Source: Chlamydiales bacterium (GTDB lineage: Bacteria; Chlamydiota; Chlamydiia; Chlamydiales; JBDQID01). Taken from it: a stretch of 26,511 bases of DNA. Each line of letters starts with the position of its first letter. Position 1 is the first letter of the stretch. The stretch lies in NCBI GenBank assembly GCA_047611865.1, contig JBLFWS010000031.1, forward strand, positions 1 to 26,511. Direction: 5' to 3'. The position numbers and the translations under genes were made by a program. The notes below the pieces were generated by a model. That model ran no database searches, was not told the DNA's origin, and worked only from the letters and a program-made list of their open reading frames with translations. Of this stretch, positions 24,866-26,511 are shown piece by piece.

Positions 24866-25000
24866 CTATAATTGTGTTTTTCTAGTAATTCTCACCCGAA
24901 CAGGAACGAGAACTTTCTTTTTACCGGGAGTGTTTTTCCGTTTTGTTACGGACCATCGTCGGCTTTTGCCGCTTTCCAACTTGTCGCTTTGTTTACTCAT
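24866..25000 (-). CDS. Small highly basic protein (44 aa), not in the ORF track
   Basis: MSKQSDKLESGKSRRWSVTKRKNTPGKKKVLVPVRVRITRKTQL; GAGGAG 5 nt upstream of the ATG; downstream hairpin. Confidence 0.7.
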   Translation of the reverse strand: MSKQSDKLESGKSRRWSVTKRKNTPGKKKVLVPVRVRITRKTQL

Positions 25001-25188
25001 GGCATCTCCTCTCTGTAAGTCTTAAGACTACCTCTTGGTGATGGAAGGTGACGCAATTATTATGCCAACCTCTAACTTTGTAATTACAGACCATAGCTTC
25101 GAAGTCAAGCTTTTTTTAAGATAAAAGAGTTCTCGTAGGATTTAGTCTCAGAAGATAGGAGCGCCTGCTGTGGAAAAGTTTTATGAAC

Positions 25189-25216
25189 CTCGGTGCCTTC
25201 TTGTGGCCTCTGTGGT
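25189..25216 (-). repeat. Orphan half of an ACCACAGAG-type 9-mer palindromic repeat
   Basis: The minus strand reads ACCACAGAG GCCACAAGA AGGCACCGAG, similar to the arm at 25664. Confidence 0.55.
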
Positions 25217-25612
25217 TTTTCCGATTTCCCATGTTTCTTGTGTTAAATATCTAAATTCGGGAATTAGAGGAAGAGCAGGAAAAAAGATATTCCGAAGTAA
25301 TCCCGGCAATATCCATACAAGTATGTTCCGTTATTTGCTTAAAAATATACCCGTGACTTCTTTTGTCAAGCTCCCCTTGGACACTAGCTATCGCCCTTTC
25401 AGTACAATTTAAGCGACTCTCCAAAGTTCCCAAATAAGCATAGGGACCTTGATGATCAACATAAGAAGAACCTCCAAACACGGCTTCCCCTTCATGCCAA
25501 GTTACAATGTTCTGATCAAGGTATTGCTTCTCGCAACGCAAATCAACAAGTCTTGTCTCGAGATTCATTATCTTCTGAAGTTCACTCCTTTCTACATTTT
25601 GAGCTTTTATAG

Positions 25613-25813
25613 GGCGTTGTTGCATAAAACATTCGTCTACAAGAGGCTTATGATTAACATTTTACCACCGAGATCACAGAGGGCGCAGAGAAAATAAAAA
25701 ATCACAGATCAGTTGATAATATATTCTGAGAGACTTTATGCATTTTTCTATCTCTCTGTGTTCTCGGTGGTTAAATAAATGATTGTAAACGTATTAAGTT
25801 ATGCAACAACGCC
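25613..25813. mobile_element. 201-bp MITE, IS5 family / IS903-group-like
   Basis: Perfect 15-bp TIR GGCGTTGTTGCATAA (25613-25627 / 25799-25813), 13/15 to the IS903 IR GGCTTTGTTGAATAA. Perfect 9-bp flanking direct repeat CTTTTATAG (25604-25612 / 25814-25822). No transposase. Confidence 0.9.
25664..25771. repeat. Palindromic 9-mer-repeat element nested in the MITE
   Basis: ACCACCGAG ATCACAGAG GGCGCAGAG ... CTCTGTGTTCTCGGTGGT; the outer 18 bp are 17/18 complementary. Confidence 0.85.
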
Positions 25814-25870
25814 CTTTTATAGCCCTAACGCTGTTAATGGCATTTTTTATAAATTCAAACAAGGGTCACG

Positions 25871-26288
25871 CCTGGGGCGACACAGATGAGGCTAAAATCC
25901 CATGATCTCCCCCTCAAGTCTTCCTGTTAAAACCCGTCCCATTTTTGTGGTGATTTTGTGGAATAGGCAACGCCTTCATGAGTCCGGCAGGACGACCCGA
26001 TTAAAGCCTCGGGTGACTTGAGCTTGCGAGGGAACCCGTGGAGGAGAAAATAAAAAATAGAGCCTGAGGAACGAAGGCGATTGAAGCCTCTTACACCTTT
26101 CAGTCGCCCTCGCGGGCTCGGATTTTCTGTTCTCACTACCACGGATTCCTTCGCTCCGCTTAAGTCATCCGAGGCTTTGATCGGGCACCCTACGGGCTTT
26201 CGAAGTTGAGCGAAATTGGTACCACAACAAGGATGTAAAAAAAATAAATCTAACTAGCCGTATATGGTAGCATCTGTCTCACCCCAGG
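25871..26288. mobile_element. ~415-bp non-autonomous element (MITE) with TIRs, target duplication and a long internal hairpin; family unassigned
   Basis: CCTGGGGCGACACAGATG (25871-25888) vs CATCTGTCTCACCCCAGG (26271-26288), 16/18. Direct repeat GGTCACGCCT at 25864-25873 and 26287-26296 (TSD of 5, 7 or 9 bp depending on the end chosen). Confidence 0.85.
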
Positions 26289-26489
26289 TCACGCCTATAC
26301 TGGGTGTTATTTAAAATATTAACTTTTACAATTAGAGGCCAGTCATATTAACACCGCGGATATTAACTCTCAAATAAAAGGAAACGCCCTTTCAACCGTG
26401 AAGTGCGACAAATAGTCTAAAGAAAAATGGCCAGACATGGCTAAGACCTCTATAGTAATTTTTACTACAAAATATTCTATGGAGAAATT

Positions 26490-26511
26490 ATGCCCGAAGA
26501 CTACCATCATC
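26490..26511 (+). CDS. Possible 5' end of a gene running off the window
   Basis: GGAG followed 5 nt later by ATG CCC GAA GAC TAC CAT CAT; only 7 codons are visible. Confidence 0.35.

Follow-up and report, generated by a model that had tools for sequence, protein, structure and literature searches.

Introduction

MITEs derived from DDE transposons of bacteria have short terminal inverted repeats (TIRs), a target duplication of fixed length and no ORF, and they occur in many copies in genomes that also hold an IS with the same termini. The IS200/IS605 family, whose transposases are Y1 enzymes, likewise has palindrome-associated miniature derivatives (PATEs).

Repeats that move by Y1 enzymes may also be built from paired units. 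In REPIN-RAYT systems, as set out in the parts of the papers by Bertels and Rainey drawn on here (2011; PMC3116915, PMC3337134), a non-autonomous hairpin consists of inverted units, and the Y1 gene is flanked by the same units. TIRtrons are a sister of the REP/RAYT and REPIN systems; as described by Di Nocera, De Gregorio & Rocco (2013; PMC3733652), a Y1 gene (TIRYT) lies between long inverted repeats that are also dispersed as singles and dimers, and the inverted repeats of many TIRYT genes contain the motif GGGGWSAS. According to Quentin et al. (2018; PMC6006769), subclass 2.1, in which an HTH domain is present throughout, accounts for most TIRYTs.

Here, we analysed a stretch of 26,511 nucleotides (the window), which is contig C31 of a Chlamydiales bacterium assembly (3.59 Mb in 272 contigs, 95.5% complete). 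An earlier note, made from the letters alone, had described near its right end a TIR element around a long rod-like hairpin, and had proposed that the hairpin is a structured RNA. We found that the rod consists of two inverted copies of a repeat that brackets a Y1 transposase gene elsewhere, carried inside a MITE of DDE type.

Results

The rod lies inside a mobile element with 9-bp target duplications

The outer parts of the element are as follows.

25864..25872, no strand: left copy of the target-site duplication GGTCACGCC (9 bp), identical to the 9-mer at 26287-26295
25873..26286, plus strand: MITE shell, DDE type, non-autonomous (414 bp; four full copies in its own genome)
25873..25888, plus strand: left terminal inverted repeat TGGGGCGACACAGATG (repeat search and alignment of copies)
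25889..25963, plus strand: left subterminal segment, with about 82% identity to other MITEs of the same TIR and a resemblance to the right end of the IS described below (TCCCCCT...AAACCGTCCYATTTTT)
26205..26270, plus strand: right subterminal segment of the MITE, kept in all full copies
26271..26286, plus strand: right terminal inverted repeat CATCTGTCTCACCCCA (repeat search and alignment of copies)
26287..26295, no strand: right copy of the target-site duplication GGTCACGCC (9 bp), identical to the 9-mer at 25864-25872

The earlier note had given imperfect TIRs of 18 bp. Such repeats exist, with 89% complementarity over 18 nt in a repeat search, but the true ends lie two bases further in and the TIR is 16 nt long; the longer figure arose because two bases of the target duplication had been counted in on each side. 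The 16-nt TIRs are complementary at 14 positions in the window copy and at all 16 in the copy on contig C68. The duplicated target that had been noticed is the 9-bp GGTCACGCC on either side of the element. The description of the core as richer in GC than its flanks and lacking a credible ORF also stands, since the GC content falls from 54.6% in the core (25964-26212) to 43.8% in the element's outer parts, that of the window being 41.1%, and the element contains ORFs of 39, 71 and 42 aa only, 71 aa being the longest.

The bases GGGGTGAC within the outer TIR (window 25874-25881 and 26278-26285) match the GGGGWSAS motif; the owner of these ends is a DDE-type IS with 9-bp duplications, and the fit may be a coincidence. 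Two further repeats are present in the vicinity. A second palindromic repeat of about 220 bp occupies window 25603-25823, directly left of the MITE, with outer arms TTTTATAGGGCGTTGTTGCATAA and TTATGCAACAACGCCCTTTTATAG, and the flank that holds it has 81 BLAST matches in the genome; in metagenome contigs, its depth exceeds that of unique DNA by a factor of about 100-300. Right of the element, a short dispersed repeat with 14 genome matches occupies window 26385-26436.

Copies of the element differ in their target duplications

A BLAST search of its own genome gave 53-89 matches to the element. Four full copies, 96-100% identical, are located at distinct sites (C31, C68, C90 and C128), and about six derivatives of the 414-bp MITE accompany them. 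C55 and C208 have the same internal deletion of 80 bp between direct repeats CGATTRAAGCCTC, C183 is an older deletion copy from which most of the core is gone, and the copies on C239, C119 and C35 are broken off at contig ends. The 9-bp duplications are perfect at C31 (GGTCACGCC), C68 (GGCCAAAGC) and C90 (ACTCTGACC), and 8 of 9 bases agree at C208, while no recognisable 9-bp duplication was found at the flanks of C128 and C55. All three deletion derivatives (C55, C208 and C183) have intact MITE ends, and only C208 among them has a recognisable duplication.

No empty paralogous site was found in its own genome, where the left flank is itself repetitive (the 81 BLAST matches above), and no contig that joins across the element was found among the contigs of four metagenome DNA runs compared with window 25300-26511. 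The organism is present in those four runs, where the unique DNA next to the element is matched by contigs of 9-25 kb that show no difference from it; one contig contains an internal deletion form like that of C183, and there are many loose ends at the repeat borders.

Related MITEs of 252 bp (C12, C19 and C148) do not contain the repeat unit of about 105 nt that makes up the core of the window copy. A further element of 453 bp (C253:1-453) has the same outer TIR as the MITE and a different GC-rich palindromic core, which is closed by a clamp, GGCGAAGCCTTCATAAG...CTTATGAAGGCTTCGCC (the GGCGAAGCCTTCATRAG clamp); the doublets of the unit have the same clamp.

A parent-type IS encodes a transposase outside the public family models

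By searching for the terminal 15-mer, we identified an IS of 1,886 bp in two full copies that are 99.8% identical (C55:857-2742 and C3:23839-25725), together with one partial copy and one 253-bp derivative. Its termini, TGGGGTGACACA, are 13 nt long and at both ends are the same as the first 13 nt of the other MITE copies. The IS copy on C3 has a 9-bp duplication, GGCCTGGCG, and the two flanks of the copy on C55 do not match. Beyond the 13 nt, the left end of the MITE and the right end of the IS have patchy similarity only (TCCCCCT...AAACCGTCCYATTTTT), and the nhmmer profile of the repeat unit found no match in the IS. The element is thus multi-copy, with target duplications that differ from copy to copy and an IS that has the same termini, which bears out the earlier view of a transposase-less TIR element, possibly a MITE; it is neither a single-copy region nor one without an autonomous parent type.

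The IS contains an upstream ORF of 82 aa and an ORF of 400 aa. Pfam and NCBIfam searches with the 400-aa protein returned no match, none of 28 aligned family members matched any Pfam or NCBIfam transposase model at E<=0.01, and a sequence comparison with solved PDB structures gave no match at E<1. None of its 68 homologues has a Pfam domain, and where their sources name them they are called 'hypothetical protein'. Most of the 68 come from contigs of about 2 kb, as would be expected of a repeated element. Three residues, D39, D107 and E306, are invariant in the family alignment. An AlphaFold model of the protein (pLDDT 86, pTM 0.81) had its top Foldseek matches in the Hermes hAT transposase (E 1e-6), the ISCth4 transposase of the IS256 family (2e-4) and the P element transposase (1e-3). 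In a protein atlas, only unnamed or 'transposase' clusters were found for the protein; the nearest clusters bearing a Pfam domain are ISL3-/MULE-like, which we regard as a lead. IS256 and MULE elements duplicate 8-9 bp of their target, in which the IS described here would resemble them. The 400-aa ORF encodes a DDE transposase with a predicted RNase-H-like fold that resembles hAT and IS256 transposases, and the IS may represent an unnamed IS family.

The hairpin core is a doublet of a repeat unit of about 105 nt

All four nested stems that the earlier note had reported are present: 25996-26023 with 26158-26185 (28 pairs), 26026-26041 with 26139-26154 (16), 26060-26066 with 26113-26119 (7) and 26076-26086 with 26098-26108 (11). 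The 28-nt arms are 89% complementary in the repeat search. The 62 stem positions comprise 54 Watson-Crick pairs, 7 G.T pairs and 1 C.A mismatch, with no other combination, and the reported plus-strand count of 7 G.T against 1 C.A is therefore correct.

The core also matches places in the genome that do not have the outer TIRs, and an alignment there defines a unit of about 105 nt, with the consensus TTCAATCGCCCT..CGGGCTC, about 20 variable AT-rich bases, CCACGGGTTCC..GTCACCCGAGGCTTTGATCG and GYCCNNNGGRC. In the window, two copies of this unit, one on each strand, are joined head-to-head to make the rod.

25975..26084, minus strand: left hairpin arm, one unit of about 105 nt (nhmmer 75.2 bits, E 8.6e-21, profile positions 2-104)
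26085..26099, plus strand: apical loop joining the inner ends of the two units (from folding and unit borders)
26100..26204, plus strand: right hairpin arm, second unit (nhmmer 82.2 bits, E 5.8e-23)

Each unit contains three short GC-rich stem-loops. Across the units, 94.9% of the cells of these three stems are paired, compared with 22-53% in slid controls; changes on both sides occur in 4 of 15 pairs, and none of 500 shuffles reaches the covariation score. For example, GCCC/GGGC in 13 rows is replaced by GTCC/GGAC in 11. RNAalifold recovered two of the three short stems from 30 units. Covariation support for the intra-unit stems is only moderate, because the unit sequences are related. The four full copies of the MITE, 96-100% identical, contain almost no covariation information. 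We also considered covariation between the two arms and dropped it as a test, as the two ends that a single transposase binds will co-evolve even across 590 bp (in assembly G023, described below).

One change in the window copy distinguishes the short stems from the long rod. In the right arm, the double change CGGAT...ATCCG, at pair 56/79, keeps the central intra-unit stem. In the long rod, this change is the source of the sole C.A and of one G.T pair, and it breaks pairing between the arms. Because this change preserves the intra-unit stem at the expense of the rod, it argues that the unit and not the rod is the selected fold.

The nhmmer search gave 65 unit matches in its own genome, namely 27 near-full units, 36 partial units and 2 fragments. 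Eight doublets are present, four in the 414-bp MITE and four in a MITE of 355 bp (C16:27927-28281, C43:15353-15708, C109:4200-4553 and C131:9301-9655), in which the doublet is about 77% identical. The termini of the 355-bp MITE are GTAAGCGTC / GTAAGCGTCAAATCAACCC / GTAAGCGTCAAATCAACCCATCTTGACAG, its 8-bp duplications are CTTGTAGC and GGGGAAAC in two copies and agree at 7 of 8 bases in two more, and its TIR resembles that of IS66. IS66-type transposase genes are present in the genome, in which a matching parent of the 355-bp MITE was not found. The doublet is heterodimeric, with a TTCCT insert in the loop of one arm, and is so in the same way in these two unrelated MITEs. The 36 partial units cover profile positions of about 30-103 and lie near one end of a third, high-copy MITE of 586 bp with different termini (for example, C97:7332-7916), which has about 30-44 copies, often at contig ends, and ends in GGGATGGTTCAG... 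and ...GAATTGAACCATGCC. This MITE has a long internal hairpin of its own in addition to the partial unit. Nearly every unit in the genome is embedded in a larger DDE-type repeat, these repeats being MITEs of three different families, and all doublets found in the genome are within a larger MITE.

The core folds better on one strand

Folding of the whole element was far more stable than that of shuffled sequences on both strands (z -9.0 on the plus strand and -9.5 on the minus strand), and the energies of -184.6 and -183.4 have no strand asymmetry. The core alone reached -67.4 kcal/mol on the plus strand (z -9.8) and -59.7 on the minus strand (z -6.8) with DNA parameters, and -137.9 and -125.9 kcal/mol, respectively, with RNA parameters. 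In all eight doublets of the genome, the same relative strand gives the more stable fold, by 5.4-15.2 kcal/mol, and has more G.T pairs than the complementary one. These eight represent only two families that share ancestral arm differences, so that the strand bias may come down to about a dozen independent substitutions, and the excess of 7 G.T over 1 has a two-sided binomial p of ~0.07.

The strand asymmetry of the core is real but modest. The earlier note had taken the asymmetry as a sign of selection on the folding of one single strand, RNA or ssDNA. This part holds in that the core favours one strand in both MITE families, but it does not extend to the whole element, and the G.T count is at the p value given above. 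The bias could also be a mutation bias in a master copy. By itself, it fits ssDNA processed by a strand-specific HUH enzyme and RNA equally. Of the two possibilities named in the earlier note, ssDNA is the better fit, because inverted copies of the unit elsewhere flank an IS200-like Y1 gene.

Inverted units flank a Y1 transposase gene in other genomes

Among 400 genomes of the order that were scored, with two candidates scored in each, the element or its core occurs in 3, counting its own; another search found it in 4 of 41 genomes, again including its own, with one of these matches marginal (E 8e-4). Outside its own genome, two assemblies among those searched contain the unit: G001, which belongs to the same family as the source and is 68% complete, and G023, from another family of the same order and 61% complete. 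An exact-motif scan over one genome per prokaryotic species gave 28 loci, with full units only in two chlamydial assemblies. In the ten loci from outside chlamydiae, the match is confined to 20-33 nt around the motif; this is at chance level, and these loci were rejected.

Single units were found in G023, and doublets in G001. On contig C96 of G023, two inverted units are located directly upstream and downstream of an ORF of 150 aa with a Y1_Tnp domain (Pfam E 4e-22), which also passes the NCBIfam model of IS200/IS605 TnpA (NF033573; 65 bits, cut-off 55). The element is about 690 bp long and has subterminal hairpins. A second, truncated copy of the locus stands at a contig start, and the Y1 gene seemingly has at least two copies in G023. 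Starting from the protein, we examined 80 metagenome loci with genes for its relatives: the sole close one (L101, 78% identity) has inverted units on both sides, and in none of the other 79, whose proteins have at most 48% identity, is the gene so flanked. An H-x-H motif and one tyrosine are invariant in three aligned Y1 proteins, and presumably have the catalytic role that they have in the IS200 family. The proposed link between the unit and a Y1 enzyme thus rests on the sequence of two loci outside its own genome.

In G001, a near-perfect palindrome of at least 420 bp on contig C75 (L032 480-900) has the doublet in its middle and continues far beyond the units, as in a foldback-type element.

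Y1 genes occur at four loci of the source genome, namely on C24, C51 (broken), C112 and C195 (truncated); the closest of them to the G023 type has 42% identity. The unit profile search of the genome found no unit adjoining any of the four loci, and no cognate Y1 gene (above 42% identity to the G023 type) was found in the 95.5% complete assembly. The Y1 genes at C24:29250-30091 and C112:6915-7972 are each flanked by long inverted repeats of their own, which are not the unit, and the C112 protein, of about 310 aa, has a long C-terminal extension. Other Y1 loci also have their own inverted repeats, which bracket the gene on C166 of G023 and form a hairpin beside the gene on C129 of G001. Environmental chlamydiae thus have several systems of this kind. 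A literature search gave no description of Y1-transposase repeat elements in chlamydiae.

Discussion

The outer element has 13-nt termini in common with the IS, 9-bp duplications and multiple insertion sites, and the unit that it carries is homologous to the inverted flanks of a 150-aa Y1/HUH gene in two other sources. We consider the locus to be probably a composite of two selfish DNAs: a DDE MITE shell and, inside it, a gene-less doublet of Y1 end-repeats, which is likely a passenger without an RNA function of its own. The shell (25873-26286) would be a cut-and-paste MITE moved in trans by the DDE transposase of the 1,886-bp IS. The cargo (about 25975-26204) would be the gene-less form of a TIRtron, an analogue of REPINs that may have arisen by loss of the gene, because inverted units bracket the Y1 gene in the two other sources. 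Y1 enzymes act on ssDNA hairpins of one strand, which would allow G.T pairs to be tolerated on that strand. In its own genome, the doublet would most likely spread as a passenger on DDE MITEs, because the assembly contains no cognate Y1 gene and the units occur almost only inside such MITEs.

A bolder version of the composite seems to us possible but rather doubtful: the Y1 end-repeat doublet would have outlived its own transposase as cargo of at least two unrelated DDE MITEs, as a hairpin selected on one strand and a hyperparasite or symbiont of its carriers. If true, it would be carried by one MITE with 9-bp duplications, linked to a DDE family outside current models whose fold is hAT- and IS256-like, and by another with 8-bp duplications, and may contribute to their mobility.

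The structured RNA of the earlier note is in our view very improbable; on that reading, the plus strand would give rise to a rod of about 200 nt that serves as a regulatory or guide-like RNA or an RNase III substrate. Its 7 G.T pairs against 1 C.A on the plus strand, the better folding of the core on that strand in both MITE families and the covariation of the short intra-unit stems would all suit an RNA. However, the supposed RNA is two inverted transposon end-repeats, which are also found single and split by a gene, and the paired change in the right arm saves the intra-unit stem at a cost to the long rod. Covariation between the arms would be indistinguishable from that of co-evolving transposase-binding ends. 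The Rfam search that had been proposed returned no match on 25871-26288 at E<=10, and over 25000-26511 at the same threshold it returned only sub-threshold (plant) miRNA models, which lie on the palindrome at 25603-25823. Promoter- and terminator-like sites in the element were no more frequent than in shuffles. The claim of an RNA cargo was therefore set aside in favour of a doublet of the unit that flanks a Y1 gene.

The doublet might instead still be active in the manner of a REPIN in its own genome, served by a cognate Y1 gene that was left unassembled or by a Y1 enzyme that cross-mobilises it, and would then have inserted itself into several MITEs. The same heterodimeric arrangement in two unrelated MITEs, with its TTCCT insert, needs either mobility of its own or recombination; an assembly of 272 contigs and 95.5% completeness could lack such a gene, as repeat-flanked genes break assemblies, and the genome has at least four Y1 loci. 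Yet no unit adjoins any of the Y1 genes found there, the best relative is only 42% identical, and no doublet stands outside a larger MITE, and we hold continued activity to be unlikely. We also give little credence to a hairpin that serves its carrier by joining the ends for the DDE transposase, blocking read-through, or stalling replication in favour of transposition. Such a role would explain why several MITE families keep GC-rich palindromic cores. In its favour, MITEs of the same TIR have different cores of this kind (the 453-bp element on C253 shares the GGCGAAGCCTTCATRAG clamp), and the G001 doublet sits in the middle of a palindrome that is near-perfect over at least 420 bp. Against it, the ends are intact in derivatives that lack 80 bp (C55 and C208) or most of the core (C183), and the related 252-bp MITEs (C12, C19 and C148) do without the unit.

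Under the composite reading, the case illustrates that nested selfish DNA can account for a striking 'RNA-like' rod of a bacterial genome, and it warns that a G.T asymmetry is not proof of RNA. It also allows one to ask, on a concrete example, whether orphan hairpin repeats survive by travelling on other transposons. The results would extend Y1-transposase repeat systems of the REPIN/TIRtron type to environmental chlamydiae, and add a family of DDE transposases, with 68 homologues, for which Pfam and NCBIfam have no model.

Comparison with known systems

The likeness to TIRtrons, as far as the part of PMC3733652 drawn on here describes them, lies in a Y1/HUH gene between long inverted repeats that are not REPs, in dispersed singles and hairpin-forming dimers, and in the self-complementary parts of the repeats. 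Inverted units on either side of a Y1 gene were found on G023 contig C96 and at metagenome locus L101, though not in its own genome, where the dispersed singles and dimers are represented by 27 near-full units including 8 doublets. Compared with the TIRtrons of that description, the Y1 protein here is short, with 150 aa and the Y1_Tnp domain only; it has no HTH at its C-terminus, and its score is that of an IS200/IS605 TnpA. The units, about 105 nt in length, have three mini-hairpins, and the dimer in its own genome resides in DDE MITEs with no Y1 gene nearby. The unit also does not contain the GGGGWSAS motif, and the protein lacks the HTH feature of subclass 2.1, both being features of most TIRYTs and not of all in the parts of the sources concerned (PMC3733652, PMC6006769).

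As in the REPIN-RAYT systems of the cited parts of PMC3116915 and PMC3337134, two inverted units form a hairpin and a Y1 gene is flanked by the same units. However, a unit of 105 nt is far longer than the classical REPs of 20-40 nt, and its mini-hairpins have the form GCCC-N-GGGC without a conserved GTAG tag. The RAYT model NF047646 does not match the G023 protein and gives 24.5 bits, against a cut-off of 80, to the C24 protein of the source genome; both proteins pass the IS200/IS605 model NF033573.

With IS200/IS605 elements, the system has in common a Y1 HUH transposase of IS200 size and the subterminal hairpins of the ~690-bp element in G023, which together imply single-strand chemistry. 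To our knowledge, the ends of canonical IS200/IS605 elements are not inverted repeats of each other, whereas the two flanks here are inverted copies of about 100 nt. Unlike in typical DDE MITEs, the interior of the window element is foreign, a Y1 end-repeat doublet and not a deleted parent IS, and among Pfam and NCBIfam families there is no match to the parent transposase.

Both kinds of element, the DDE MITE and the Y1 end-repeat doublet, are known already. The long unit with three hairpins is modestly new, as is the finding that two or three unrelated MITE families carry it in a genome from which its transposase seems to be missing; the occurrence of such systems in environmental chlamydiae, and a parent IS whose transposase is not recognised by public family models, are modest novelties as well.
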